Origin: Candidatus Woesebacteria bacterium GW2011_GWB1_39_12
GTDB taxonomy: Bacteria > Patescibacteriota > Microgenomatia > UBA8517
DNA length: 64,000 nucleotides
Reading direction: 5' to 3'
Assembly: GCA_000993405.1 (NCBI GenBank)
Contig: LBWB01000009.1
Coordinates: forward strand, 77,848 to 141,847
Part shown: positions 2,220-60,202 of the stretch, piece by piece
Position numbering within the stretch: the first letter of the stretch is position 1
Layout: each line of letters opens with the position of its first letter
Position numbers and translations under genes: made by a program
Notes under the pieces: model-generated
Databases searched by the model: none
The model's input: the letters and a program-made list of their open reading frames with translations, nothing else
Told to the model about the DNA's origin: nothing

Positions 2220-3041
2220 TTAATTCTTTGCAGCTTCAACCAAATTTTCCAAAAGACATGAAATCGTAACTGGTCCGACGCCACCTGGAACGGGAGAAAC
2301 AAATGAAGCCTTTTCGTAAGCCCCTTTTTCAATATCACCATACGGTGCGCCAACGTCAATAACTACTGCGCCTTTTTTGATGTCATCTCTGCCGATAACT
2401 CCTGGTGAGCCGGTTACACTGATTAATATATCCGCCATTTTTGTCTTTTTCTTCAAATTTCCCGATTTACGATCTAATCCTTCAACTTCATATCCCATCT
2501 TTTTCAAATTTTGATAAATCTTTTTTCCCTCAAATCCCATCGCCCCAACAACTACTACTTTGCAGGGTCGTACCCTGTTTTTAATATAAGGTTTTCCTAT
2601 GCGAAGAATCTCCAAAACCGCTTTAACTGTTGGAGTCAAATGCAAACTGTCTTCACGAAGACCATCAACGTCTTTTTCTTTCGCGATTGTGTTAAGTATT
2701 TCATCTCTATCTCCTTTCGAAAAATTATCCGGTAGCGGCAACTGCACCATTATCCCGTGTACATTGTCATCATTGTTAAATTTTACAATTATTTTTTGGA
2801 TTTCCTTTTTACTTATACTTAGACTTAAACTTATCACTTCTACCTTCGCCCCTATTCTCTCTGCCACTTTTCTCTTGAGATTCACATACAGGGTACTTGC
2901 AGGATTATCCCCCACCAAAATCGATACCAACCTAGGAGTCACCCCCCCCAATCTCTTACGACCGAAGGTCGAATTCATCTCTTCTTTTAACTTATTCTCT
3001 TTTTCCCAAGCAAACGCTTTTCCGTCAAAAATATGTGTCAT
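2220..3041 (-). CDS. folD: bifunctional methylenetetrahydrofolate dehydrogenase/methenyl-THF cyclohydrolase
   Basis: 273-aa ORF; FolD family pattern (…ILVGDNPASTLYVNLK…, …VVVGAMGFEGK…, …GGVGPVT…). Confidence 0.9.
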   Translation of the reverse strand: MTHIFDGKAFAWEKENKLKEEMNSTFGRKRLGGVTPRLVSILVGDNPASTLYVNLKRKVAERIGAKVEVISLSLSISKKEIQKIIVKFNNDDNVHGIMVQLPLPDNFSKGDRDEILNTIAKEKDVDGLREDSLHLTPTVKAVLEILRIGKPYIKNRVRPCKVVVVGAMGFEGKKIYQNLKKMGYEVEGLDRKSGNLKKKTKMADILISVTGSPGVIGRDDIKKGAVVIDVGAPYGDIEKGAYEKASFVSPVPGGVGPVTISCLLENLVEAAKN

Positions 3042-3336: not shown

Positions 3337-4551
3337 TTAAGTATTTCTTGCATCTTTATTCTGTGGAAGTTTATACGCTTTAACATAGTCGATTACTTTT
3401 AAAATCCATTCAGCAATTTGCTCCATTTCCTTTTCCTTCATACCTCTTGCGGTTATTGCCGGCGTCCCCAGTCGAATCCCCGATGGATAAAAGGGTGGCA
3501 TCGGATCATTCGGAACCGAGTTTCTGTTAACAACAACTCCGGCTATCTCGAGTGCTTCTGCTACAACATTTCCGGAAAGTCCAAGCGGCATAAGGTTTAC
3601 TACTACTAAGTGGCTCTCAGTTCCGTCACCATAAAGGCTAAGGCCGCCCATTTTAAGAGCAACTCCTAAGGCTATAGCGTTTTTTACAACCTGTTTTCCA
3701 TATTTTTTGAATTCGGGCATTTCAGCTTTTTCAAGAGCAACAGCAATTCCTGCCGTTGTATTATTATGTGGCCCGCCTTGAAGACCAGGGAAAACTGCTC
3801 TATCAATTTTTGATGGCAACACCGGGTCCTTTTTTAAGCCTTTATTTGTCACCCAAATAATCGCTCCTCTTGGCCCGCGAAGAGTTTTATGAGTCGTTGA
3901 AGTAATAACGTGTGCATAATTAATTGGGGAAGGATAAGCACCTGCAACAATTAGACCAATAACATGAGAAATATCCGCAACCAACCAGGCACCTATCGAA
4001 TCAGCAATTTCTGAAAACTTTTTCCAATCAAAAGCCAAGGGATAAGCCGTAGTTCCTATAAGCATCAATTTTGGCTTCTCAACTTTTGCAAACTTGGCGA
4101 TTTTTGAATAGTTCAATCTCCCATCTTCATCAACGCCAAACTGTACAGACCTAAAGTATTTTCCAGAAAATGTAATGTCGGGGTGACCGTGAGTAAGATG
4201 CCCTCCAACTTTTAACTGCATCCCCATTACGGTTTCGCCAGGGTTGACTAAAGCAAAATAAACCGCTGAATTGGCAGGAGAACCGGAATATGGCTGAACA
4301 TTTGCATGAGGAGTTCCAAAAAGTTTTTTTGCCCTTTCAACTGCAAGCCTCTCAATGTCATCAACTATTTTGTTACCCTGGTAATATCGTGCACCCGAAT
4401 AGCCCTCTGAATATTTATGCATGAGGATTGATCCAACCGCTTCCCGAACCTCGGGATAGGTATAATTCTCCGACGGAATCATCATAAGCGTCTCCGCCTG
4501 CCTTTTTTCCTCTTTCTTAATTAATTCCAATATTTTATCCATGTATTTCAA
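3337..4551 (-). CDS. glyA: serine hydroxymethyltransferase
   Basis: 404-aa ORF; SHMT hallmarks (…LKVGGHLTHGHP…, PLP-lysine region …TTHKTLRGPRG…). Confidence 0.95.
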   Translation of the reverse strand: MKYMDKILELIKKEEKRQAETLMMIPSENYTYPEVREAVGSILMHKYSEGYSGARYYQGNKIVDDIERLAVERAKKLFGTPHANVQPYSGSPANSAVYFALVNPGETVMGMQLKVGGHLTHGHPDITFSGKYFRSVQFGVDEDGRLNYSKIAKFAKVEKPKLMLIGTTAYPLAFDWKKFSEIADSIGAWLVADISHVIGLIVAGAYPSPINYAHVITSTTHKTLRGPRGAIIWVTNKGLKKDPVLPSKIDRAVFPGLQGGPHNNTTAGIAVALEKAEMPEFKKYGKQVVKNAIALGVALKMGGLSLYGDGTESHLVVVNLMPLGLSGNVVAEALEIAGVVVNRNSVPNDPMPPFYPSGIRLGTPAITARGMKEKEMEQIAEWILKVIDYVKAYKLPQNKDARNT

Positions 4552-5788: not shown

Positions 5789-7504
5789 CTACATCAATGA
5801 CGGCAAAGGTTGTCTAACAAAATCTTCCGGTTGATTTACACAACTAATGTGTCCATTTTTGCAACATACTGGTTCATATTGCTCCTCACCCGCAACAAAG
5901 GTTTTGTCATCGTAATCAGCTATTTCCCCATACTGGTTATACCTTCGCGTTCCTTGTGCCTCGTTATCACAATACTTACAGGTAGTACCCAACTCTACCT
6001 CATGCCAATCTGGACGAACAGTTGCCTCTCTTATTAATTTATGAGCAAAATTAAATGGTTCTTCTTGGAATGTGTAGTCTATAAAATCGCAAACCACATG
6101 GAAACCCATCTGTCTTAACTCTTCAACTGAACTAACTGCCTCATCTGCGTCACTCTCATAAAACAACATTGTCTCATCAATAAATAAGTAAGTCTTTCTC
6201 GGATCAATATTATCAGACCCAATCCTTCTCTTCACATCCTCTAAAATCTCTGAAAGTTTATTACTCCATATCGTATTAGCCGGTATCTCCACACCGTCTC
6301 GATTTTTTAATTTAGTTTCATACTCGGGTCCGTATCTTAATGCTGCGGCAGGTTGAAAGGCTAAAATATTTTCATCTCCCACCATTTCGGAAATGTAAGT
6401 AAGCACACTTGTTTTCCCAGCAAACATACTTTTACTATGAGCAATAACTACTTGTGGTCCCATGTTTGGTGAAAAAATTCTACTTACTATATAATCAGCT
6501 ACTTCCTTTGGATCTTGCTTCAAATATTCTCCCAATATCTCAAGTTGATCTCTTATTGAAAACAAAGTTGCATACTTCAAATCTGGATTCCGATAAAATT
6601 CAGGAGGATCAACTACAATTGGCAAAACCTTTATACCTTCTTCTCTCAATGGTTCTATTGCTTCCCTCTCTACCCGAACCATCACCTCTAGATCCTCCAG
6701 TGTTATTTTTCTTTCCATGTCTCGAACTTTTGGATTCCCTTCTATCCTCTCCTGAAGTCCCTGATATAATCTCTCAACAGAAGTAGGAAGCATAAGGACC
6801 AATAAATCGGGTTTTGATATCAATGGTTTTAAAAGCTCAACTGTTTTTTTATAAACTTTATATTCTTCATCTGTAACTTGGCCTCCCTCCACCCTTGCTC
6901 TCATGAATATAAAATTATCCGACCAAACACTTGTGTCTCTCGCCCATCTCCCGTCATAAAGTTTTCCTCTTAACCCGGTAAAAATACTGTCTAAGCCAAA
7001 ACCTAGTTCTGTTCTTAACCAATAATCGTTGTCTGAATAAGCCAGGCTTAAAAAAGGATTCTCTGATGAATGAAAACGTTCGCTTTCCATTTTCGCTTTA
7101 ATTTCTGGCGAAACAAACTCTGTAAGAGTGGATTTACCAACTCCAACAACTCCTGCAGCTTCGAGTACGAATTCCTGTTTACCTTCCCCCATCATAATTT
7201 CACAAAACTCCGGGAAATTATCAAAAGGAGGCAAAGAATATTTTATAGAAAAAAGATTAAACGTCTTTTCGAATAACCCAATTTCATCCGGGGAAAATTG
7301 TGTATGAAAGTCTGTAAGCTGTCCTCTCACCAATTCTGTAAACTGTCTTTTCTGACCTTGATCTGCGTTTGAAAGAACCTCTTCTGACAAATTTAAAGTC
7401 TCGATAAAATTTGAAAATTCGCCCAAAAATACTTCTCTCGGAGCAAATTCTTTGGAAGCATAACCTTCTCTTTCAGGGGCAGCAGTTTTTCCCTGTGAAG
7501 TCAT
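5789..7504 (-). CDS. fusion protein: deoxynucleoside kinase-like domain (N) plus thymidine kinase TK1-type domain (C)
   Basis: 571 aa; N-terminal P-loop AAGVVGVGKSTLTEF is dNK/dCK-like. The C-terminal half has the TK P-loop VIAHSKSMFAGKTSV and a Cys4 zinc-ribbon lasso (…CKYC…CCKNGHISC…) typical of TK1. Confidence 0.7.
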   Translation of the reverse strand: MTSQGKTAAPEREGYASKEFAPREVFLGEFSNFIETLNLSEEVLSNADQGQKRQFTELVRGQLTDFHTQFSPDEIGLFEKTFNLFSIKYSLPPFDNFPEFCEIMMGEGKQEFVLEAAGVVGVGKSTLTEFVSPEIKAKMESERFHSSENPFLSLAYSDNDYWLRTELGFGLDSIFTGLRGKLYDGRWARDTSVWSDNFIFMRARVEGGQVTDEEYKVYKKTVELLKPLISKPDLLVLMLPTSVERLYQGLQERIEGNPKVRDMERKITLEDLEVMVRVEREAIEPLREEGIKVLPIVVDPPEFYRNPDLKYATLFSIRDQLEILGEYLKQDPKEVADYIVSRIFSPNMGPQVVIAHSKSMFAGKTSVLTYISEMVGDENILAFQPAAALRYGPEYETKLKNRDGVEIPANTIWSNKLSEILEDVKRRIGSDNIDPRKTYLFIDETMLFYESDADEAVSSVEELRQMGFHVVCDFIDYTFQEEPFNFAHKLIREATVRPDWHEVELGTTCKYCDNEAQGTRRYNQYGEIADYDDKTFVAGEEQYEPVCCKNGHISCVNQPEDFVRQPLPSLM

Positions 7505-10395: not shown

Positions 10396-10474
10396 AAAAA
10401 AGGAGTTGTTACAAGCTCCAAAATTTCATATACAGTTCTGAACAAATTTTTATAACTTAGTACTCGCTAACCAA

Positions 10475-11389
10475 TCATACCCTAGTCGAAGCAAGATAAT
10501 CTTTCCAAAACTCTTTGATCATAATTTCTGTCCAAGTTTCAATTTTGGGTTCTTTTCCCCTATTCCAATCACCCTGTCTTTTTTCCATCTCTTCTTCCAC
10601 TTTACTAAATGGAACCCACCAAGCTTTTGCAATCTCACTTGTAGGAAATGTTAAATGACTGACTACTCGGGAGTTAATCTCTAAAACTGCCGCAATGCCT
10701 GTGTGCACCCAACCAACTTGTACTGGTAATAACGGGTCTTCAATCCTTTTATCGTAAAATGCGCCCAATAGTTTTAAATTTTCAACTCCGTCTCTGGTTA
10801 TCCCTATTTCTTCTTCAACCTCACTGAAAAAACCACGATTCAAACCTAAAACTGTCCCAACTTCATCTTGAACGGCGGGTAGTAAACCTTTAAGAAAGAT
10901 AAGTTCTTCACGGCTTATTGATATATCTTCTTGAGTTTTATGTCCGCCAAAACCAACTGTAAAACGACCCTGAAGTCGTGGATCACCAATAAACTTTCTA
11001 CCTTTTTTAGCTTCGGGACTTGAACGTTGATACCAAAGAAGATTTTCTTGACAGGTAACCATGGTATAAATAATTATTTGCTGTCTAGTAGGATCATTTT
11101 CTAAACCATTCTCGCCATATCTTCTCGCAACATCACCGTATTTAAATACAACTTTCAAAACTTCTGGTACATTTCGAGTTACTAAAACATCCGGAGAAAA
11201 AAAGGAAGGCAAAAACTCTGTTCTGTCATTGAATAAAACTTCGGTTGGCACAAAAAGCGATGTCTTATCAAGAGTTGGTAAAGCTTCTTTTTCAGACTTG
11301 ATAGAAACCGGAATTGGAAGCATAAACGTCTTTTTGCCTTGTTTCGCTTCTGCGCTTCTTTCTGTCACCATTTTCTTTTTTTTACCCAT
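10475..11389 (-). CDS. hypothetical protein (weak Nudix-like segment)
   Basis: 304 aa; only a loose GX5EX7RExxEE-like stretch (…GGHKTQEDISISREEL…); function unknown. Confidence 0.4.
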   Translation of the reverse strand: MGKKKKMVTERSAEAKQGKKTFMLPIPVSIKSEKEALPTLDKTSLFVPTEVLFNDRTEFLPSFFSPDVLVTRNVPEVLKVVFKYGDVARRYGENGLENDPTRQQIIIYTMVTCQENLLWYQRSSPEAKKGRKFIGDPRLQGRFTVGFGGHKTQEDISISREELIFLKGLLPAVQDEVGTVLGLNRGFFSEVEEEIGITRDGVENLKLLGAFYDKRIEDPLLPVQVGWVHTGIAAVLEINSRVVSHLTFPTSEIAKAWWVPFSKVEEEMEKRQGDWNRGKEPKIETWTEIMIKEFWKDYLASTRV

Positions 11390-11613
11390 TAAAAACCTCC
11401 TTGTTAAAGGAGGGCAGTAATTTGTCTATTTTACAACAAATAAAGTTTTTTAGAAGTATTATTATTTACTTTTAAGGGACAGCTCCTACGAGGTGTATAT
11501 AGTTTTAATTAATTAATTTCCCTTTCTGAACCTGTAGCGTTTTCTCTCTCCGCTCTGGGTTTTCGCCGAGTCTAACTCGGCTTACGCCAGCTGGCCATTT
11601 GCGTTCTGGGGTC

Positions 11614-12099
11614 TTAACAAATTTCATTAATCACCTCAGTGGAATATGATTTACCGTCGATCCAATCTCTAATTGCTGGAATATTATATTCAGGTTTATA
11701 TAATTTATTTTCTTCTATCAGCTTTTCTAATTCCGAAGTACTGAAATAATTAAAACCGGTTATTTCAAACCCGTCTGGCGTTACTTCACCTTCAACAATT
11801 TCTCCTCTGAAAACAAACCCTAAACCGGTTGCATCATCTCCCCGATCAGTTGGATAAATCCTAATTAGATCTAAAAGGTTTATTTCAACTCCGATTTCTT
11901 CCTTGGCTTCCCTTTTCGCAGTCATCATAGGATCTTCGTGTGGTTTCATTTTGCCGGAAGGGGGTGCCCATGCAAACTTTTCTTCCTCTATTTTCTTTTT
12001 TAAAAGGAGCAGTCTCCCTTCTCTATCCCCGATAAAAACACCGCTTGAAACACTTACTGGCAGTTTTTCTCTCGAGGATATCCTTTCTTTAGACATCAA
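11614..12099 (-). CDS. NUDIX hydrolase
   Basis: 161 aa; good Nudix box GKMKPHEDPMMTAKREAKEEIGVEI. Confidence 0.8.
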   Translation of the reverse strand: MMSKERISSREKLPVSVSSGVFIGDREGRLLLLKKKIEEEKFAWAPPSGKMKPHEDPMMTAKREAKEEIGVEINLLDLIRIYPTDRGDDATGLGFVFRGEIVEGEVTPDGFEITGFNYFSTSELEKLIEENKLYKPEYNIPAIRDWIDGKSYSTEVINEIC

Positions 12100-12460
12100 G
12101 AGTAAAATGCTTACATTCTTCTGAACCAGGATCAGTAAACATCTCTCCTAAATTTTTCCCTAATCCTTTAGCGATTCTCTGCGCAAGTTCGATGTCCATG
12201 GCGGCCATTGGACTCGAACCATCTCTCAACATATATAAGTAATAACGCATGGTATCAAAAACCTTGGCAGCTTTTTTAATTCCACCCAAATCACCAATTC
12301 CGCTTTCCAAATTTCCACGAAAATTTTCAAGTAATCGCTGAACTTCCTCTTCAGAGACCTCGTTACCAGTTGCGTCCTTGTATCTTCTCGCTTGCTCCTG
12401 TATAACCATTCCTAAACTCGGATTGGGTTTTTTAATTTCTTCTGGAGACATACTTGTCAC
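12089..12460 (-). CDS. hypothetical protein
   Basis: 123-aa ORF in a same-strand array; no family recognised. Confidence 0.4.
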   Translation of the reverse strand: MTSMSPEEIKKPNPSLGMVIQEQARRYKDATGNEVSEEEVQRLLENFRGNLESGIGDLGGIKKAAKVFDTMRYYLYMLRDGSSPMAAMDIELAQRIAKGLGKNLGEMFTDPGSEECKHFTLDV

Positions 12461-12500
12461 CTTTAAGGGTTCCTTTAAGGGTCGTGCCCTATAAGGTACG

Positions 12501-12755
12501 CTAATCGTACGGTGGCATGTGATCGATTGAGTTTTCTCTAAAATAATTATCTATTTTTTCATCTCGCATTTTTAAAGCCAGATTTATTTCATCATCAGTT
12601 AAATCCTTCCGAGCAGCTGCTAAATTTTCATTCTCTAACCATACCTCAACTGAAAAATGGTTTGTATATAAAATTCTCGCAAGTTTTTCAGCCAGACCCA
12701 CTCGAACCCCCGCCTTTTCTCCGGTTAGCAAATCGATTCTTTCTGACATATTCAT
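12501..12755 (-). CDS. hypothetical small protein
   Basis: 84-aa ORF; no family recognised. Confidence 0.35.
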   Translation of the reverse strand: MNMSERIDLLTGEKAGVRVGLAEKLARILYTNHFSVEVWLENENLAAARKDLTDDEINLALKMRDEKIDNYFRENSIDHMPPYD

Positions 12756-12829
12756 GCAAATATAACTTTATAAAAATAATAAAGCTTGACTTAATCCGTT
12801 GGGCATCTTTGACTTGTTTTTGACATTTT

Positions 12830-13927
12830 TTGACAACCTTGTTCCATTCTGGTATAAACCTAATCCTAAATAGGATTTTTGACATGAATCAGGCTTATTT
12901 TGAAACTTTGTCCAAGGATTATTTTGGTAACCTTTACCAAAAAGTTTGCAGTGCATTAACTAAAGGTGAAAATGTTTGCATTTCCGTGATACCTGGTTTT
13001 GGAGAAAAAACAATTTTTAATTTCCTGAATTTTAATTTCAAAAACGACAAACTGTTTAACGAAATTTATATTTATGATCCCGAATTGGAAAATGAAAGTA
13101 TTATCGACTATACCAAAAAATTGGAATCCCATAAAACTTCTAAAACTAAACTTCTCATTATCAGATTCTTTGAACAAATTGAAAAAAAGAGAGAGACTTT
13201 GGAAAAACTTGATAACATCAGAAGGAAAAATCCAAAGAGTCTCACCTATTTAGCCGTTTCCAATCAAGAAGCTTTTTTAAATCCCTCCTCGCACCAGGCA
13301 TTAACAACGGTGTTCTTTTCTGAACTAATTTATTTTTCTCCTTTTGATTTTGCTCACACAGAAAAAATGGTTGAGTCGTTGGCGTCTTATTATGGCTGGA
13401 AAATTGAGCCTTCCAGCTACAAAGAAATTTATAATTTGTCTGGTGGAATCCCTAGAATTATAAAATACTTAACTAAAGAGCTTTATGAATCTCGAATCCC
13501 GCTAGCCAATAAAGACAAGTTAACACTAATTCCCCAAATCGGCTTTCAACTTAGACTTATGACAAGAATTTTGATTACCTATGATCAAAAACAAATTCAA
13601 TTGATGGGATTAATCGATGAAAAATACCGATTGAAATCAGGACTTTTAAAATACTTCTTAAAAAATTTCAGAAGCGATATGATTAGCAACCTCTACCCAC
13701 AGCTAGGTGACACCGAAACAAAGATTCTGTCTTTTTTCAGCGAGAAGGAAAGTAAAATTGTAACTTTAGATAATTTAGCCCACTTAATGAAGATGTCTGA
13801 TGATGATTTTTCCTTATGGGCAATTTATAAGTTAATATCGCGCCTTAAAGTGAAAGTAAAAAATAACTTTAATATAAAAAATCTCAAAGGCCGAGGGTAT
13901 ATTCTTAGTAAATCAGTGAATCAATAA
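12830..13927 (+). CDS. hypothetical protein (possible degenerate P-loop GFGEKT)
   Basis: 365-aa ORF; unknown family. Confidence 0.45.
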   Translation: MTTLFHSGINLILNRIFDMNQAYFETLSKDYFGNLYQKVCSALTKGENVCISVIPGFGEKTIFNFLNFNFKNDKLFNEIYIYDPELENESIIDYTKKLESHKTSKTKLLIIRFFEQIEKKRETLEKLDNIRRKNPKSLTYLAVSNQEAFLNPSSHQALTTVFFSELIYFSPFDFAHTEKMVESLASYYGWKIEPSSYKEIYNLSGGIPRIIKYLTKELYESRIPLANKDKLTLIPQIGFQLRLMTRILITYDQKQIQLMGLIDEKYRLKSGLLKYFLKNFRSDMISNLYPQLGDTETKILSFFSEKESKIVTLDNLAHLMKMSDDDFSLWAIYKLISRLKVKVKNNFNIKNLKGRGYILSKSVNQ

Positions 13928-16458: not shown

Positions 16459-17541
16459 TTAAACCTTTTTGTATACCCCATTACCAATATTCTTCACTAT
16501 CCCTTTTAATTCCATAACAGTAAGTTTCCCTGAAATTTCAGAAACTTTCAACCCTGATATTCTAGCGCATTCGTCAAGATGCAAGGGTTCATTTGTCAGA
16601 ATTTCAATTATTTTCTTCTCATCTGCGTCAGTCGGCATAACCTTGTTAACGGCGTCTCTATCAACTTTAAGCTGTAAATCCAGTTCCTCCAAAATATCAT
16701 TAACACTCGTAACCATTTTGGCTCCGTTTTTAATCAAATAATGCGAAGCTGCTGACATTGGAGACGTAATCTGGCCGGGAACCGCAAAAACGGTCCTTCC
16801 TTGTTCGGCCGCATGTTTTGCTGTATGAATTGTTCCGCTTTTAATCATTCCTTCAACAACAATAACGGCTTTGCTCAGACCCGAAATTATTCGATTTCTG
16901 AAAGGGAAAAAATACCGTTGTGCCTCGGTTCCCGGAGGAAACTCCGAAACTATCGCCCCACCTGTCTTTATTATTTCCAAACCTAACCATTCATTAGACC
17001 TTGGGGTTAGTTCGTCAACTCCCGAAGCCAATACCGCAACACACCTTCCTCCTACACTAAGTACGCTTTTATGGGCTTCTAAATCCACGCCGAATGCAAG
17101 GCCCGAAACAATCGTTATTCCCAAAGACGCCAGTTCAGAGGATAATTTTTGCGTTACCTCTCTACCATAAGAAGTCATTTTCCGGCTGCCTACAATAGCC
17201 ACCGAGTTGGTGTCATTTTTACTTAATTTCCCCCTTATATATAAAACCAACGGGGCGTCGTCCAGATCTCTCAAATTTTCCGGGTAACTATCATCGTTTA
17301 TTGTGATTACATCAATTGAATGCTTCTTTAATCTATCAAAGTACTCTTGAGAGTTAAAATCTCTCTTATATCTTCCAAAGTCTTCAACAATATTTTTCTT
17401 CAGACCTATTTCGACTAAACTTTTACTGTTAGCATTCCAAGCATCTTTAGCACTACCAAAATACTGAATCAGAAGATTTGTCCTCGCGGGACCAAAGTAG
17501 ATAAATGCGTACAAAGCAATCAGATATTCACGGTCAGTCAT
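16459..17541 (-). CDS. dprA: DNA processing protein DprA (Smf)
   Basis: 360 aa; Rossmann-like DprA core …IVSGLAFGVDLEAHKSVL…VAVLASGVD…. Confidence 0.9.
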   Translation of the reverse strand: MTDREYLIALYAFIYFGPARTNLLIQYFGSAKDAWNANSKSLVEIGLKKNIVEDFGRYKRDFNSQEYFDRLKKHSIDVITINDDSYPENLRDLDDAPLVLYIRGKLSKNDTNSVAIVGSRKMTSYGREVTQKLSSELASLGITIVSGLAFGVDLEAHKSVLSVGGRCVAVLASGVDELTPRSNEWLGLEIIKTGGAIVSEFPPGTEAQRYFFPFRNRIISGLSKAVIVVEGMIKSGTIHTAKHAAEQGRTVFAVPGQITSPMSAASHYLIKNGAKMVTSVNDILEELDLQLKVDRDAVNKVMPTDADEKKIIEILTNEPLHLDECARISGLKVSEISGKLTVMELKGIVKNIGNGVYKKV

Positions 17542-25718: not shown

Positions 25719-26102
25719 GGTTATTTTTGCTCTATTCAACTATTGACCTTTCTTGCTACAATATAAGTGACCCTGTGGAGGGGATTCGGGAAAGCCTTTT
25801 CTCACCGTTTTTTAAACAATGGGTGCCCATTAATTAAGGGCCTCGGGGCAAAGTTCCCGATTTCCACGGAGTCCCGAGAGAAATCGAGGGATTCTAAGGA
25901 CTTCGAGACAGCCTACCCACCTGGATTCATCCGGGAAAAGTCTTCTTCCGAACCCAAAGCAGGGTCATTCTTGAGCAAATCCAGCTTCAATAATAACTTC
26001 TGTAATGTTATAATCAGTCAGTCTCGCCGTCTTAGCTCAGTGGTAAGCAAAGCTTGGCCGAGTCAGACTCGGTAAGCAAAGCTTGGCCGCTGAGATGCGT
26101 TT

Positions 26103-26174
26103 GCCGTCTTAGCTCAGTGGTAGAGCAGCTGTTTTGTAAACAGCAGGTCTAGGGTTCGAATCCCTAAGACGGCT
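26103..26174 (+). tRNA. tRNA-Thr (anticodon UGU)
   Basis: Hand-folded cloverleaf: acceptor gccgtct/agacggc, D-arm gctc-agtggta-gagc, anticodon arm gctgt-tttgtaa-acagc, T-arm taggg-ttcgaat-cccta; CCA not encoded. Confidence 0.85.
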
Positions 26175-26199
26175 CAAGTGCAAACACACATTTTATTTA

Positions 26200-43320: not shown

Positions 43321-43506
43321 ATGGCTAAAAAAGGGGCAAGGGAAATAGTCGCATTAGTCTGTACTGTCTGCAAAAGTCAAAATTACGTGACTGAGCGGAA
43401 TAAGGTTAATATGGATTTGAAAGGCAAAGGCAAGCTGCAGATTAAAAAATGGTGCAAACGATGTAAGAAAGTCCAACTACATAAGGAGACCTCTAAACTA
43501 AAATAA
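43321..43506 (+). CDS. rpmG: 50S ribosomal protein L33 (zinc-ribbon type)
   Basis: Real start MAKKGAREIVALVCTVCKSQNY…KWCKRCKK (C4). The upstream in-frame Met of the track ORF is probably not used. Confidence 0.85.
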   Translation: MAKKGAREIVALVCTVCKSQNYVTERNKVNMDLKGKGKLQIKKWCKRCKKVQLHKETSKLK

Positions 43507-43581: not shown

Positions 43582-43983
43582 ATGACACATTTATCTCGCA
43601 GAATTTTGCAGTCAAAAACCGAAAAGGAATTAAAAAGCATCTTAAAAGAGGCGCTTCTTAATTTAAAATTCAGTGAGTACGATAAAGTATTTTACTCTCT
43701 AATCACCAAGACCGAGGAGCTAATGATAGCTAAAAGACTTGGAGTAATATTAATGCTTTCAGAGGGTGCAACTTACGAGGAAATCTCAGAATCTTTAAAA
43801 TTAACAAACGAAACTATATCAAGAGTTCACTTTGAAATGAATTCTCATCCTGCAACTTACAAATTTTTGTTAAATAAATTAAAACCATGGAAAAGAAGGA
43901 AACTCTTAAAAGAGATTCTCGGAGATCTTGGATTTAGAGCTTTAAAACTTACCGCCAAACATGTGGGTGGTCGAATTTATTAA
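43582..43983 (+). CDS. TrpR-like (YerC/YecD family) helix-turn-helix regulator
   Basis: 133 aa; …RLGVILMLSEGATYEEISESLKLTNETISRV… HTH; the gene is bracketed by a 20-bp palindrome and a half-palindrome. Confidence 0.55.
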   Translation: MTHLSRRILQSKTEKELKSILKEALLNLKFSEYDKVFYSLITKTEELMIAKRLGVILMLSEGATYEEISESLKLTNETISRVHFEMNSHPATYKFLLNKLKPWKRRKLLKEILGDLGFRALKLTAKHVGGRIY

Positions 43984-44142
43984 CTTATTTTCTCTTTCGA
44001 TCTCTAAAGGTTGCTTAGTTCGATATATCGAACTATAAGGCAGGAAATTTACAGTAAAGTTCGAAGGTGTTAAAATATACAAGTTAAGGATTACAATTTA
44101 GGACTGTCGGTTAATACTAAACCATAGTTCTTTAAACAATAT

Positions 44143-44213
44143 AGGGTCGTGGTGAAATGGTATCACGGCGGTCTCCAAAACCGCTTTTCCGGGTTCGAAT
44201 CCTGGCGACCCTG
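44143..44213 (+). tRNA. tRNA-Trp (anticodon CCA)
   Basis: agggtcg/cgaccct acceptor, gtga-aatggta-tcac D-arm, gcggt-ctccaaa-accgc anticodon arm, ccggg-ttcgaat-cctgg T-arm, discriminator g; CCA not encoded. Confidence 0.85.
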
Positions 44214-44395
44214 CAAAACAAAAGTGACTCTCTTGTGGAGTCTATTTTTGTTTTGTGGCCAGGATGAGAAATTTACACTGAGCGAGTGAAACGAGTCGAA
44301 TGTGAATCCTGGCGACCCTGCCAATTCTTTGAAATTCCAAGTGTGTCAAGCTATTCCACTCCAGGTGTGGTTTAAACAAGTGATATTATTAATTT

Positions 44396-44722
44396 ATGCT
44401 TAGAGAATACGATCGAAAAATCAAAAGGCTTCTTGATTCAAAACGTGCAGACACGGATTGGAAAGAAATCTTTAAAACCCATCAAGAAATGGTATCAATT
44501 ATCCGGCACGAAAGACTTTTACATCTTCTGGTTATGCTGACTGTGGCAATTATAGTAACAATTGTATTTGCTTTAATTATTGTGTTTGAAAAAACCATTC
44601 TTCTTTTATTGGGTATTCCGCTTTTTGCATTGTTTATCGGATATATCATCCACTACAGGTTTTTGGAAAATACAACTCAAAACTGGCACAAATTGTCCAT
44701 GGAAATAAAGAAAAATATTTAA
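44396..44722 (+). CDS. hypothetical membrane protein
   Basis: 108 aa; two hydrophobic helices. Confidence 0.4.
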   Translation: MLREYDRKIKRLLDSKRADTDWKEIFKTHQEMVSIIRHERLLHLLVMLTVAIIVTIVFALIIVFEKTILLLLGIPLFALFIGYIIHYRFLENTTQNWHKLSMEIKKNI

Positions 44723-44830
44723 CTATTGTGACCTCTTGCAAATATTCTTAAGATATTTCAATTTGGTTGAAACAGTCCTTCGATCCCACTCGGGATAAAT
44801 CCACTAATCCCTGCAAAATAGCCTCTGGCA

Positions 44831-45301
44831 TTATAAATTTATAAACTGAAGATATTTCTCTAATATAGGATACATTCCTACCATTAAATCTTTATATCCC
44901 AAAAGTACTTCAGGACTCTCCCACTTGTATTTATCATGCCCTTCTAAGTTTAAATCAATTTTTGAGTTTGAAGTTAACGTTGTTTCCGCTAACCAAACAT
45001 CGTAATTAATTTGCTTGCGGACTACGTAAAAATTAAAGGTACCCAGATGAGTTAAGTTTTCCTGATTAAACTCTAACCCTATTTCCTGCCTGGTTTTTGA
45101 AACTGCTGTATCTATAAAGGACGCCCCCTCAGCAACCTTACCACCTGGCAAACCCCAACGATTACCTTCTGGAACATTGCCTTTCCGATGCAGCACTAGC
45201 AATTGTCCGCCCTTATTTACTAACAGTATTCCTGCTGCTCTAATAGCCATATAAATGAAGATTAGCATTTGAATAAGCATAATTAAAGAAGCTCCTGACA
45301 A
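44831..45301 (-). CDS. NUDIX-like hydrolase
   Basis: 156 aa; …GLPGGKVAEGASFIDTAVSKTRQEIGLE… approximates the Nudix box. Confidence 0.6.
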   Translation of the reverse strand: MSGASLIMLIQMLIFIYMAIRAAGILLVNKGGQLLVLHRKGNVPEGNRWGLPGGKVAEGASFIDTAVSKTRQEIGLEFNQENLTHLGTFNFYVVRKQINYDVWLAETTLTSNSKIDLNLEGHDKYKWESPEVLLGYKDLMVGMYPILEKYLQFINL

Positions 45302-45338
45302 AGTTTACTAGCCCCTGCCGCGTAACCTCGGTGGTATA

Positions 45339-45881: not shown

Positions 45882-46063
45882 TGTAAAAATAGTTCCCTAC
45901 AAAATTCACTAGCCCCTGCTTAAAATTCCCTAAATTCCCAATGTGTCAGATGTTTGATTCTGAGCGGTGGACTTTTCGCTCAGACTCGAAGAGCTATTTA
46001 ACTCCTGGAATTGTTTAGTGTGGCTAAATCAATGTACTTTAAGAATTTCGTAAATATTTAGAC

Positions 46064-53084: not shown

Positions 53085-53564
53085 ATGACTACAACCGCAA
53101 GGTTAGGTGGACTGCTTTTCGCGGTCCTGTTACTCGCGGCGCTCGCTTTGATGATGAGCCCCGCAAACCCAGCTGCACTGCAGCTGGAAATTAGCATACC
53201 CGGTGGCGCTGCGCCGGAACTGTCTGCTGCAGAGCAGGCGATGAAAAACGCCTTGGAACTTCTCCCAGGCGCCCAAATCAGCGTTCCTGCGCTCTTTTCG
53301 CCAAACGGTGGCTCAGTAACCTTGAACATGAACGGCATGTCGCTTCAGACAAACTGGAGCCCTGTGGACGAAGGGTGTGATTATCACGGGTTCATTAATG
53401 GAAAGAGAATCCCCCTTCTTCACTCGGAGGATCCTTGCGATCCTGCTGATTTCCTCGCGTGGCTGGTTGCCTACGCTTACAAGATCACCGAGGTGATCGG
53501 TAAGGAAAGGGGCGATTCCATAGTTCGTGCAGTTGTCGAGCTGATTCAGCCGTTTGTCCACTAA
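53085..53564 (+). CDS. secreted hypothetical protein encoded by a conspicuously GC-rich, foreign-looking segment
   Basis: 159 aa with signal peptide (…LGGLLFAVLLLAALALMMSPANPAA…). The coding DNA is visibly far more GC-rich than every other gene in the window. An RBS-like aggaga lies upstream. Overlapping minus-strand ORFs are probably GC artefacts. Confidence 0.5.
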   Translation: MTTTARLGGLLFAVLLLAALALMMSPANPAALQLEISIPGGAAPELSAAEQAMKNALELLPGAQISVPALFSPNGGSVTLNMNGMSLQTNWSPVDEGCDYHGFINGKRIPLLHSEDPCDPADFLAWLVAYAYKITEVIGKERGDSIVRAVVELIQPFVH

Positions 53565-54890: not shown

Positions 54891-55076
54891 GTGAAGGCTT
54901 TATTGGAATATCTAAAAGGCGTTCGAAGCGAACTCTCTAAGGTTACCTGGCCCAAAAGAGATGAGGTCATGAGGTTAACTTTGACTGTTTTTATCATTTC
55001 TGGGATAATTGGAATCTACCTTGGCGTCCTAGATTTCGCCCTCACAAAGTTACTTGAGGTTTTAATTTCAAGCTAG
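54891..55076 (+). CDS. secE: preprotein translocase subunit SecE
   Basis: 61 aa; …ELSKVTWP… followed by a single TM; conserved position before nusG. Confidence 0.85.
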   Translation: MKALLEYLKGVRSELSKVTWPKRDEVMRLTLTVFIISGIIGIYLGVLDFALTKLLEVLISS

Positions 55077-57204: not shown

Positions 57205-58266
57205 TTAAATAGTCCTGTTCCCCGATATTGCAGAAGTAATGTCTTCAACTATTCCATTCTTACATTCCCCACATAAATTTTTTCCTGACATACAAGCTTG
57301 TAATACCTGCTCTAAAGTAGCATCTTTTAAGACTAGGTCTGCAATTTTAAAAAAAGAACATTTATGAGGATTTCCTCCAAGTTTTTCTTGTTCATTCACC
57401 GAACGACCTCCGCTTACTGCTTTTATTAATTTCTTCCGATTTACTTCAGGATCGTCTCCGAGAAAAACAGCCGTATTAGGAACTTCAATAGACATTCTTT
57501 GTCCATTATTGCTTTTTAAACTTGGCAAAAGTAAGCGGTAGGAAAAGCTGGGCGGACTGACATTCAGTCGTCTTGCAACTTTATTTGTAATCTCAGCATG
57601 AGTAACCTGCTTAACATCCGCTGTCACTAGAGTTGGTTTTTCTGGCGAAATTAGCTGAGGCAATAAGAAAGAGGCAGTGAGTGTACCCGGTGTATTTAGC
57701 TGGTTCATGGTAATTTCACCGGCATTCCACCCATACAATCTCAAGAGTTCTGCAATTTTTATTTTATTATCTACAACGGATTTAAGAGATCTTATTTCTG
57801 GTGAATCGACATCCGAATACACATATTGAGGAAAAGCTAAATCCTCTTTCAATACACCCCTTATAACAGTCTTCCAAAATTCTCCTACTTTTGCTCTTGC
57901 CTGATCAGTACTCAAAAAAGTATTTGCTTCATGACCGGATACTACAAAAAAGGGTTCAGCTCCGTGTTTTATATGCCAAGCGATCTCTCGTCCTAAAGTT
58001 ATATGACCCGCATGAAACCGAGAAGGTTTGAAACCAACCAAAAGATTATAACTTTGACCTCGGTCTATTTGATCGAATATCTGATCAGGATCCTTCATTG
58101 CCCAAACACCCGTCTTTGCTAAAGATCTAGCTAAATTTGTACGTAGTCCTTCATATTCTGATAGTGGTGTTAATCCAAATTGTTGAACTTTTTTTCGACT
58201 TTCCTCGCCTAAATCGCCCACCCAGGACATTCTAAGTTCTGACAATAAGCTTGCATTCTCACTCAT
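57205..58266 (-). CDS. class I aminoacyl-tRNA synthetase-like protein (TrpRS-like) with C-terminal Cx21Cx6Cx2C motif
   Basis: 353 aa; HIGH-type motif FKPSRFHAGHITLG; no clear KMSKS; the C-terminal Cys spacing resembles the [4Fe-4S] motif described for Thermotoga-type TrpRS. Confidence 0.5.
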   Translation of the reverse strand: MSENASLLSELRMSWVGDLGEESRKKVQQFGLTPLSEYEGLRTNLARSLAKTGVWAMKDPDQIFDQIDRGQSYNLLVGFKPSRFHAGHITLGREIAWHIKHGAEPFFVVSGHEANTFLSTDQARAKVGEFWKTVIRGVLKEDLAFPQYVYSDVDSPEIRSLKSVVDNKIKIAELLRLYGWNAGEITMNQLNTPGTLTASFLLPQLISPEKPTLVTADVKQVTHAEITNKVARRLNVSPPSFSYRLLLPSLKSNNGQRMSIEVPNTAVFLGDDPEVNRKKLIKAVSGGRSVNEQEKLGGNPHKCSFFKIADLVLKDATLEQVLQACMSGKNLCGECKNGIVEDITSAISGNRTI

Positions 58267-58278
58267 TTTTTCACCTTT

Positions 58279-59097
58279 CTAATTTATAATTGACTGATTT
58301 TTCAAGAAAGTTAATGACTCCATGTATTTTGGTTCGCTGAGATACTTATTGCATTTTTCAAAATATAAATCCGGAAAATCAAATCGGTCATGACTATAAG
58401 CTCCGAAAGCCCAAAACCGGGAAGTATACTCAACAGCTTTTCTATTTATATTTTTCAGTAATCCTCCAGTAAATCTATATTTGTTTCTGCTTATTTTTAT
58501 TACCAAATTTAATTTAATTAAAGTATTTGGCATCGTTTCTCCCATAATTCTCCAAATATCCTGAAATTTGGGTGAAACATAGTGCTTGAAAAAATACGAA
58601 TGATAATGCGGGTACAAAAAGGAGTAAGACTGAAACACACTGGCCACAATATTATTCCTATTTAAATTTTGAATATTCTTATTTTTACTAAGATACACCA
58701 TAAAGGGGGTTATTAATTCTAAAGAGACTGAAAGTATTTCCTTATCATCCATAAGATTTCCTATCGAAATAAACGGGTTTAAAGTCTTACCGCAGAAATA
58801 CCCACCATATTTTCCTTCTCGACCATCTTTTACGAACTCTTTCTTGGGTACGATATAAAGAGTTACAGGATGGTTTTTATAAGAGGCGCTAATTCTTCTG
58901 GGATTACCGTTTGAATTAGTAATCAACATAAAATCCAAATCACTGCCCTCTTTTAACTGATTTGTGATCAGACTGCCATAGACTATCCAGACATGATCTT
59001 TTTTATAACTAGATTCTAGATTTAGCCTCTCAGATAGATACTTGGTTGACTCGACAGCTAGCTTATAATTTTTCTCTGAAACAATAGATTTATACAT
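58279..59097 (-). CDS. nucleotidyltransferase-domain protein (Pol-beta superfamily)
   Basis: 272 aa; …VYGSLITNQLKEGSDLDFMLI… matches the GSx(n)DxD minimal nucleotidyltransferase motif. Confidence 0.6.
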   Translation of the reverse strand: MYKSIVSEKNYKLAVESTKYLSERLNLESSYKKDHVWIVYGSLITNQLKEGSDLDFMLITNSNGNPRRISASYKNHPVTLYIVPKKEFVKDGREGKYGGYFCGKTLNPFISIGNLMDDKEILSVSLELITPFMVYLSKNKNIQNLNRNNIVASVFQSYSFLYPHYHSYFFKHYVSPKFQDIWRIMGETMPNTLIKLNLVIKISRNKYRFTGGLLKNINRKAVEYTSRFWAFGAYSHDRFDFPDLYFEKCNKYLSEPKYMESLTFLKNQSIIN

Positions 59098-60202
59098 ATG
59101 TATGGTAGGACTTATCTATATATTGGAACGGTTGTCCTGCATTTCCAAAAGTTGTCTTTACTGCTTCGGCAATAATTGCGGGCATTAGTTTTTGCTTATT
59201 CCAATAATCTAAGAATCGTATTTCACCAAAATACAATAACCCCAAATATTTATTTATATCCTGAATATCCTTCCAGGTGCCGTTCATTCTTGTAAAGACT
59301 TCTACTGCGACTTTTTGATAATTTTGTATTTCATTATTAAAACCGTAATTATGATTGATGATTATTCTGCCAAACTCAATTTTCATTTCACCTAAAGTTT
59401 CTGCAGAAAAATATCTATAAGACCACCAACCATACATGTGAGAAAGCATTTGCCTCCAATCATTATGAAAACCAGACCACTCCCAATCTACCAAATACCA
59501 GCCGTTACCGCTTACTACAACATTCGATGGCTGAGGGTCACCATGACAAAGTACACCAAATGAAGGAGCATCTACTCTTTCCAAACGCGAAAAACACTCC
59601 TCTAAAGATGGATAAATGACCCCATTAATTTTTAAAGGTAAATTAAAATAATTTTCTAATTTTATATTATCTGAAATTTTTATTTCTTTTACCCCTTTGG
59701 TAATTCTTTCCAATCTTGGTTTATAAGGCCGAGGAGACTCCTCTGAGAGATAGTTATGTTTAGTTTGCTCCCAAACATCAACTAATGAAAAAACCACATC
59801 ACTCCATATAGACAAACATTTAGAGCATGTTTTAGGTTTACTACAAATCAATCGATGTAATGTTTCTGTGCCATATGCATTACTAATCATAATTTCATAA
59901 TTTCCTACTTTTTGAACATTTAAAACTTCTGGTAAATTTTTGTAGTACTTCGATAAAGTCAAATATCTCGCATACTCATCGAATAACGACAGTCTCGGAT
60001 CTTTTACGCATTTTACTGCATAAAATACTTCTTTCTGGGTGTCACCATAAATATAGACCTTTGAATTAGACGATCCTGAATGTACAGATAATAACTGCAA
60101 TCTGTCCGAACTAGTAAGCTTTGTAACTAACTTATGGGCAATTTTTTGAGACATATTATCAAATAAAAATAAAAACCTCCTTTTGGTAGAGAGGTTGTTC
60201 AA
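59090..60202 (-). CDS. phosphotransferase of the APH/choline-kinase (protein-kinase-like) family
   Basis: 370 aa; …LCHGDPQPSNVVV…YLVDWEWSGF… (Brenner HGDxxxxN motif and DWE motif). Confidence 0.7.
   Translation of the reverse strand: MNNLSTKRRFLFLFDNMSQKIAHKLVTKLTSSDRLQLLSVHSGSSNSKVYIYGDTQKEVFYAVKCVKDPRLSLFDEYARYLTLSKYYKNLPEVLNVQKVGNYEIMISNAYGTETLHRLICSKPKTCSKCLSIWSDVVFSLVDVWEQTKHNYLSEESPRPYKPRLERITKGVKEIKISDNIKLENYFNLPLKINGVIYPSLEECFSRLERVDAPSFGVLCHGDPQPSNVVVSGNGWYLVDWEWSGFHNDWRQMLSHMYGWWSYRYFSAETLGEMKIEFGRIIINHNYGFNNEIQNYQKVAVEVFTRMNGTWKDIQDINKYLGLLYFGEIRFLDYWNKQKLMPAIIAEAVKTTFGNAGQPFQYIDKSYHTYV

Follow-up and report, generated by a model that had tools for sequence, protein, structure and literature searches.

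An apparent 107-bp insertion scar at the 3′ end of the tRNA-Trp gene of a Candidatus Woesebacteria bacterium

The gene for tRNA-Trp(CCA) of Candidatus Woesebacteria bacterium GW2011_GWB1_39_12 is intact and is followed by a second, exact copy of its last 18 nt. This distal copy appears to be the original 3′ end of the gene, still located on its native downstream flank, and the copy at the end of the working gene appears to have been brought in by inserted DNA. We regard the chances as about evenly balanced that the 107 bp concerned are the relic, or a miniature non-autonomous derivative, of an att-type insertion that regenerated the tRNA. The window referred to below is the whole stretch of DNA analysed, 64,000 nt of contig LBWB01000009.1 (assembly GCA_000993405.1), and positions are those of the window unless a related locus is named.

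The tRNA-Trp gene and its duplicated end

The tRNA-Trp gene called by ARAGORN (Table 1) also matched the Rfam family RF00005 (44143-44213, 62.9 bits). The mature tRNA ends with the discriminator G at 44213; the gene does not encode CCA. Two exact copies of the 18-mer GAATCCTGGCGACCCTGC are present in the window, the chance expectation for the 64 kb being ~0.02 matches even when 3 mismatches are allowed; the duplication is far above chance level. The 18-mer comprises the last 4 nt of the T-loop (GAAT), the 3′ half of the T-stem, the 3′ strand of the acceptor stem, the discriminator G, and one extra C, with its left edge in the T-loop and its right edge 1 base beyond the discriminator. The two copies are separated by 89 nt and are identical at 18 of 18 positions, and the identity breaks off sharply at both edges: AAAAC follows copy 1 and CAATT follows copy 2, and G-CCA is read only at copy 2. 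An earlier note on this DNA had described the duplicate and had placed the second copy at 44303-44320, which is one base off its actual position (44304-44321); the sequence cgagtcgaatgtg that it gave as preceding copy 2 is indeed read there.

The 89-nt spacer showed no similarity to nt 1-54 of tRNA-Trp, neither in a local alignment (p 0.93) nor in a right-anchored one (p 0.38). The idea that the spacer is the decayed 5′ part of a tRNA gene was rejected on these grounds, and copy 2 is therefore a clean 3′ fragment rather than a worn-out full-length gene. The residual tRNA similarity upstream of the fragment by which a tRNA pseudogene would be recognized was not found.

Ten assemblies of the same, clonal population from Rifle groundwater, which came from different samples and assemblers, were identical at this locus except for one SNP; the differences seen in L004 were runs of N and scaffolding artefacts. 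As the ten assemblies agree, the duplication is real and fixed. No empty site or polymorphism was seen in these ten independent assemblies; the predicted empty site reads ...GGGTTCGAATCCTGGCGACCCTGCCAATTCTTTGAAATTCC... and the predicted circle junction ...GAGTCGAATGTGAATCCTGGCGACCCTGCAAAACAAAAGTGACTC.... The 18-mer was also used to search viral, genome, and metagenome contigs; the two large collections among these do not include the window's own genome. It gave 115 hits (3 in viral, 41 in genome, and 71 in metagenome contigs). All of these were isolated matches, attributable to chance, to coding sequences from unrelated taxa, most of them with a high GC content, and the flanks showed no similarity. 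Neither an attP-like junction nor the 18-mer in the context of a tRNA or an element was found in the viral, genome, and metagenome collections.

Upstream of tRNA-Trp, the window contains a perfect palindrome, AGTTCGATATATCGAACT, whose core GATATATC is kept upstream of tRNA-Trp in the related loci L014 (~927-944), L011 (~10452-10472), and L015 (~3364-3380). The palindrome may be the operator of the neighbouring TrpR-like protein; if so, this protein would control tRNA-Trp. Another observation concerns folD (2220-3041, minus strand), the plus strand of which has a 16-nt exact match to the anticodon arm of tRNA-Trp (TCTCCAAAACCGCTTT, 2609-2624) and also carries the first 8 nt of the tRNA (AGGGTCGT, 2564-2571). 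The folD mRNA would be complementary to tRNA-Trp across 16 nt, which is probably due to chance inside a coding region, although the odds for it are small.

Table 1. Features of the tRNA-Trp region and related features elsewhere in the window and in related loci
Feature	Locus	Position	Strand	Remark
Perfect palindrome AGTTCGATATATCGAACT	window	44017-44034	.	between TrpR-like (YerC/YecD-type) gene and tRNA-Trp
Promoter-like site TTTACA, 17 nt, TG-TAAAAT	window	44048-44076	+	upstream of tRNA-Trp; match to consensus only
tRNA-Trp(CCA)	window	44143-44214	+	intact; ARAGORN call
Repeat copy 1	window	44197-44214	+	working 3′ end of tRNA-Trp
A/T-flanked strong hairpin	window	44214-44255	.	directly 3′ of the gene; terminator-like on both strands
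Inverted partial copy of T-stem and 3′ part of T-loop	window	44255-44270	-	GTGGCCAGGAT at 44255-44265
Junction segment (30 to ~33 nt)	window	44274-44303	+	ends ...GAGTCGAATGT; immediately left of copy 2
Repeat copy 2	window	44304-44321	+	putative displaced original 3′ end of tRNA-Trp; CA follows, reads G-CCA
Flank F (~55 nt)	window	44322-44375	+	ancestral sequence downstream of tRNA-Trp
Gene for 108-aa predicted membrane protein	window	44396-44722	+	first gene downstream; not part of the insertion
Repeat R (~35 nt, ends ...CACTAGCCCCTGC)	window	44790-44814, 45281-45318, 45882-45919 (44802, 45306, 45907)		at gene boundaries
Repeat R	L135	15608-15644, 16253-16316		
Repeat R	L141	4327-8454		6-7 copies
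Repeat R	L142	457-489		
468-aa gene	window			recurs in L014, L137
CBM96-like gene	window			recurs in L011, L014, L137
RelA/SpoT	window			recurs in L137
RNase HII	window			recurs in L011, L014
secE-nusG	window			recurs in L011
tRNA-Thr(TGT)	window	26103-26175		exact copy of its own first 20 nt (GCCGTCTTAGCTCAGTGGTA) at 26026-26045
Pseudo-tRNA-Trp, 85-aa GIY-YIG gene, intact tRNA-Trp, in this order	L014	1008-1428		pseudo-tRNA: 5′ 39 nt, 97% identical to the real gene
3′ two-thirds of a different tRNA-Trp allele	L137	8610-8665		8 nt after the gene
3′ half of tRNA-Tyr, other allele	L135	1373-1425		45 nt after the gene
5′ half of tRNA-Thr(GGT), other allele	L015	790-840		upstream of the gene

The ancestral flank and the inserted DNA

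The region was compared with nine related loci (L011, L014, L015, L133, L135, L137, L139, L140, and L142). A TrpR-like gene (43582-43983) is located just upstream of tRNA-Trp, and its homologues carry Microgenomates or Woesebacteria names. The TrpR-like proteins of the nearest other species are 56-68% identical, and no relative is closer than 68%. In the Microgenomates genome GCA_000993085.1 (L135), whose TrpR-like neighbour is 62% identical, tRNA-Trp directly abuts a homologue of flank F, which corresponds to the "empty" arrangement that the earlier note had proposed to look for in relatives. An identical duplication in related genomes, which it had named as the sign of an ancient fixed feature, was not found; the relatives lack the duplication. 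When F of L135 was used alone as the query, without any tRNA bases, its best match in the whole window was 44332-44373 (E 0.073 with 128 kb searched; shuffle p 0.0004). What lies behind copy 2 is a homologue of the stretch that directly follows tRNA-Trp in L135; copy 2 therefore marks the old gene end, and the 107 bp to its left would be the insertion. In L135, F forms an intact hairpin followed by a T-run; in the window, several pairs of this hairpin are lost and a new and stronger one now stands directly behind the gene, as expected if F had been relieved of its role. The 108-aa ORF further downstream and the 107-aa ORF that occupies the corresponding place in L135 are not homologous.

The inserted 107 bp correspond to the 89 nt plus one 18-mer, and the 89 nt contain no gene. 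They begin with the hairpin directly 3′ of tRNA-Trp, which has the outer arms CAAAACAAAA and TTTTGTTTTG and an inner stem GACTC/GAGTC and is missing at the equivalent position in the relatives. The inverted partial T-stem copy contains GTGGCCAGGAT, which is able to pair with either of the direct repeats and forms 10 of 11 pairs with ATCCTGGCGAC of copy 2. Extended by the hairpin arm, this region is complementary to copy 1 plus its flank at 18 of 25 positions. The fold of 44255-44330 gave a z of -2.35, with a stem formed by 44255-65 and 44306-16. The junction segment shares the microhomology TCGAAT/GAAT with the T-loop. No significant match to the 89 nt was obtained in the related loci (best E 0.055, elsewhere in L133), there was no counterpart downstream of their tRNA-Trp genes, and no other copy of the insert was present within the window. 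Terminal inverted repeats were absent from the ends of the insert, its inverted repeats being internal (the hairpin and the T-stem copy), and the combination that marks transposons and MITEs, terminal inverted repeats with either a transposase or related copies elsewhere, was not observed. A search of 44215-44400 with the covariance models of Rfam 15 at a relaxed threshold returned only noise from eukaryotic miRNA and snoRNA models (E at least 0.29), and the same type of search on 52.6-55.1 kb returned nothing.

The pairing within the insert could also be read as a sign of function: copy 2 and GTGGCCAGGAT, located 40 nt upstream, would then form a tRNA-like 3′ helix ending in GCCA that processes or regulates the downstream transcript. 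We consider this very improbable. The 10/11 stem, the 3′ tail CCUGCCA, and the z value of the fold are in line with such an RNA, but it would be located behind a strong terminator-like hairpin, no Rfam family was matched, the stem is not kept in L135, and the downstream gene differs between species.

L135 also carries a duplication of its own. A 73-nt direct repeat with 93% identity, composed of the last 19 nt of tRNA-Trp and F, encloses ~0.8 kb containing two small ORFs that belong to no known family. Here, too, the boundary falls in the T-loop. The sequence to the left of the distal copy (...AAGTTCGAATGTC; 30 nt ...GTGAGTAATAAGTTCGAATGTC) is homologous to the junction in the window (...GCGAGTGAAACGAGTCGAATGT), a right-anchored alignment giving 19 identities over 30 positions (shuffle p 0.0003; window background 0.0016). 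At their left ends, the two inserts are not related (p 0.85). The loci L014 and L011, which are nearer to the window than L135, do not have the repeat structure found in L135, and independent insertions by related elements would for this reason be a more economical explanation than a common origin followed by losses. A site-specific process is suggested by the position of the boundary in the T-loop and by the occurrence of homologous junctions in two species.

These boundaries also bear on the explanation that the window once held two tandem tRNA-Trp genes and that a deletion took the first 54 nt of the distal one. Several observations would be in line with such a course: partial genes are commonly found next to complete ones in the clade, the partial copies in L137, L135, and L015 represent different alleles, as expected of old paralogues or replaced genes, and a deletion bias would be expected in small CPR genomes. 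However, the identity of 18/18 drops instantly to random, and a simple tandem duplication should also have doubled the spacer or F, neither of which is present twice here. Moreover, a random deletion end-point would not reproduce a T-loop boundary with a junction homologous to that of L135 (p about 1e-3). A decayed tandem duplicate is therefore unlikely in our assessment.

In a further scenario, DNA of a relative carrying tRNA-Trp together with its own terminator would have been taken up by transformation and integrated by homology-facilitated illegitimate recombination, the left end by homology in the TrpR-like/tRNA region and the right end at the GAAT/TCGAAT microhomology in the resident T-loop. 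This course needs no recombinase. DprA is encoded in the window (16459-17541), the microhomology is present where the junction meets the T-loop sequence, and the foreign-allele remnants beside complete genes in relatives fit the replacement of whole genes. Still, it does not predict that another species would have a homologous 30-nt junction at this T-loop position, the donor would require an identical 18-nt end, and no donor sequence was found in the viral, genome, and metagenome collections or in the related loci. We thus judge such a patch to be decidedly unlikely.

The course we prefer is an att-type insertion. The 107-bp DNA would have entered the tRNA-Trp gene within the T-loop and would have consisted of a replacement 3′ end (copy 1), the terminator hairpin, the inverted partial T-stem copy, and the 30-nt junction. 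Because the insert would have carried its own last 18 nt, the tRNA would have been kept intact while the old end was moved 107 bp downstream. The geometry is that of a Campbell-type insertion in which the attachment site of the element mimics the tRNA end, copy 1 representing attL and copy 2 attR, and it would most likely involve a site-specific recombinase acting in the T-loop. What is present now would be either the stump of a larger element that was deleted down or a miniature element immobile on its own; we infer both the recombinase origin and the once larger or mobile state. Of the features of an att scar, the terminal tRNA repeat, the regenerated intact tRNA, the identity block extending from a loop to the gene end, and the unoccupied site in L135 were observed, and an adjacent tyrosine or serine recombinase gene was found neither among the 38 window ORFs scanned nor among the ORFs of the relatives near tRNA-Trp. 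Several observations argue against the att reading: att sites do not normally contain an inverted partial copy such as the one within the insert, no recombinase was found, no attP-like junction was found in the collections searched, no empty site or polymorphism was seen in the ten assemblies, and the left ends of the inserts in the window and in L135 are unrelated. Cargo and a sign of excision are missing as well.

The rpmG-secE stretch and its repeats

The earlier note had taken the repeat for the proximal edge of an ~11-kb insert that separates rpmG from secE. The distance was given correctly, since rpmG (43321-43506) and secE (54891-55076) are 11.4 kb apart by their coordinates, and in L011, the sole relative whose contig reaches secE, the two genes are 9.5 kb apart. 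The gene order h272, tRNA-Thr(GGT), rpmG, TrpR-like gene, tRNA-Trp is common to the relatives, and several genes of the stretch recur in them, as listed in Table 1. In L142, as in the window, a NUDIX gene is located 1.3 kb from tRNA-Trp. Differences in gene content between species are confined to the first few kb (~4 kb) after the tRNA. Judged from this synteny, much of the 11-kb stretch is conserved backbone and not an island.

A scan of 38 window ORFs, among them those of at least 100 aa at 43.5-58.3 kb, revealed no integrase or recombinase family, and no recombinases were found beside tRNA-Trp in the nine related loci. A third copy of the 18-mer with 3 mismatches is present at 53429-53446, inside the conserved C-terminal domain of a 159-aa protein with homologues. 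Its location in a conserved coding domain led us to reject it as a distal att site and to take it as a chance match. The two checks proposed in the earlier note, for further copies of the 18-mer and for an integrase, yielded neither a credible distal repeat nor an integrase in the stretch. An island of ~11 kb reaching secE, with the repeat as its proximal att site, is hardly credible in view of these data. The variable gene content of the first ~4 kb and the imperfect copy at 53429 could be cited for it, but copy 2 is located on the ancestral flank, the backbone genes inside the stretch are syntenic in relatives, the 53429 match belongs to a coding domain, and the stretch lacks an integrase. 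The proposal of an insertion scar at the tRNA 3′ end is thus retained, with the T-loop-to-end copy, the regenerated gene, and the empty arrangement in L135 in its favour, and its extension to 11 kb is abandoned: the inserted DNA would be limited to the 89 nt between the copies.

The linkage of rplA and rplJ is also broken in the window (57205-60202), by three minus-strand genes; one encodes a class I synthetase similar to TrpRS/TyrRS, another a 272-aa protein that belongs to no family, and the third an APH-like protein of 370 aa. It seems usual for this genome that clusters of ribosomal-protein genes are interrupted.

Downstream of the scar, a short repeat, R, was found with the consensus TGAAGAAGTTCCTTACAAAGTTCACTAGCCCCTGC followed by AAAAT. 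It is present in four species, where the intergenic regions around a NUDIX gene contain one copy each, all on the same strand, and the R1 copy of L135 used alone as the query recovered the copies in the window. Pairs of R flank single genes that differ by species, a cyclase in the window and an HD protein in L135. By its layout, R resembles either a -35 box separated by a 17-nt spacer from a -10 box or a cassette-boundary site. Its similarity to the ends of tRNA-Trp is weak (within the top 0.2-4% of the window background). The idea that R copies are older relics of tRNA-Trp ends marking a cassette array was rejected, as L141 has one R per intergenic region over 4.2 kb and no tRNA in 9.8 kb.

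Two further resemblances were noted among the downstream repeats. The segment 45920-46020, which follows the R copy at 45882-45919 (copy B), resembles F in two collinear blocks split by a 43-nt hairpin insert (45949-45991), with a score that was reached by 0 of 3000 shuffles and by no background segment of the window. In L011, three copies of a 76-nt repeat with 86-93% identity (10970-13040) bound two PIN/MazE toxin-antitoxin pairs directly downstream of tRNA-Trp, and the end of this repeat, ...CAGGTGCTGC|TTAAAATT, resembles the end of R plus the start of F.

Known systems and partial tRNA copies in the lineage

Among the attachment sites in tRNA genes, a class with its sublocation in the T-loop has reportedly been distinguished. 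A left edge in the T-loop and a right edge at the gene end form the identity block expected of this class. With the islands and prophages that are mobilised by integrases and have attL and attR in tRNA genes, the scar shares the T-loop-to-end repeat, the regenerated gene, the displaced end on the chromosomal flank, and the unoccupied site in a relative. It differs from them in having only 89 nt between the repeats and an internal inverted T-stem copy, and no integrase, cargo, or evidence of excision.

CIMEs and other decayed islands are flanked by att sites and have lost their recombination genes, as for example beside ICESt1 and ICESt3 in Streptococcus thermophilus. They are kilobases long and gene-bearing and can be mobilised in trans or persist as relics. 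The scar resembles them in keeping att-like repeats without an integrase, but its element is only ~0.1 kb in size and has no known autonomous partner. Casposons have target site duplications of 14-15 bp and terminal inverted repeats. As in casposon-type transposons beside tRNA genes, a short direct target duplication flanks an insert at a tRNA 3′ end; however, the duplications found here comprise 18-20 bp (73 bp in L135), and terminal inverted repeats, Cas1, and a transposase are lacking.

Other integrative elements are said to target the 5′ end of tRNA genes and to supply a new 5′ part. The corresponding mirror geometry was found at tRNA-Thr(TGT) of the window, with its 20-nt 5′ duplicate at 26026, and at tRNA-Trp of L014, with a 39-nt 5′ duplicate. 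Unlike those elements, the insert at tRNA-Thr has only 57 nt and no integrase, and the insert in L014 has only a small GIY-YIG gene. A literature search on GIY-YIG genes with tRNA duplications and on tRNA islands of CPR bacteria found nothing specific.

The 57-nt insert at tRNA-Thr(TGT) includes a 19-nt direct repeat in its interior and a hairpin, CCGAGTCAGACTCGG. Comparison with L135, L133, L137, and L011 shows that the ancestral spacing from the -10 box TATAAT (26009-14) is kept by the fragment at 26026 and not by the tRNA-Thr gene itself. The 5′ duplicate of tRNA-Thr(TGT) is the mirror image of the 3′ case of tRNA-Trp. The two inserts showed no similarity to each other and were rejected as related sequences.

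Partial tRNA copies beside complete genes were present in at least 5 cases in the related loci, at tRNA-Trp in L135, L137, and L014, at tRNA-Tyr in L135, and at tRNA-Thr(GGT) in L015. The pseudo-tRNA-Trp of L014 has a degenerate T-arm and lacks the 3′ acceptor strand, and the first bases of the intact tRNA-Trp overlap with the stop codon of the GIY-YIG gene. In L133, a further GIY-YIG gene is located beside tRNA-Thr(GGT) (6890-7102). The fragments that derive from other alleles suggest that whole tRNA genes were replaced in these lineages. The two inserts of the window comprise 57-89 nt, are free of genes, and have duplicated ends of 18-20 nt; the inserts of the relatives reach 0.3-0.8 kb and contain one or two small genes. 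All boundaries of the partial copies are located in D-, anticodon-, or T-loops, which suggests that small insertions or replacements that restore the gene have struck the tRNA genes of this lineage repeatedly.

Taken alone, the tRNA-Trp scar is a routine insertion footprint at a tRNA gene, a new example of a well-known feature. Only tentatively do we propose a process operating throughout the Microgenomates, in which very small inserts that carry a duplicate of the displaced gene end would enter the loops of tRNA genes; we consider it doubtful at present. The pattern could be due to a family of miniature elements that are immobile on their own and depend on a recombinase or GIY-YIG nuclease supplied in trans from another locus, or alternatively to an unrecognised, recombinase-free route of tRNA gene turnover.

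The results correct the reading of 11 kb of this CPR genome as an island. They indicate that tRNA genes in these tiny, little-studied genomes were repeatedly hit by gene-restoring insertions and that the resulting scars can comprise only ~100 bp and occur without any recombinase. If the pattern extends genome-wide, it would offer a handle on the turnover of gene content in bacteria of the Candidate Phyla Radiation.
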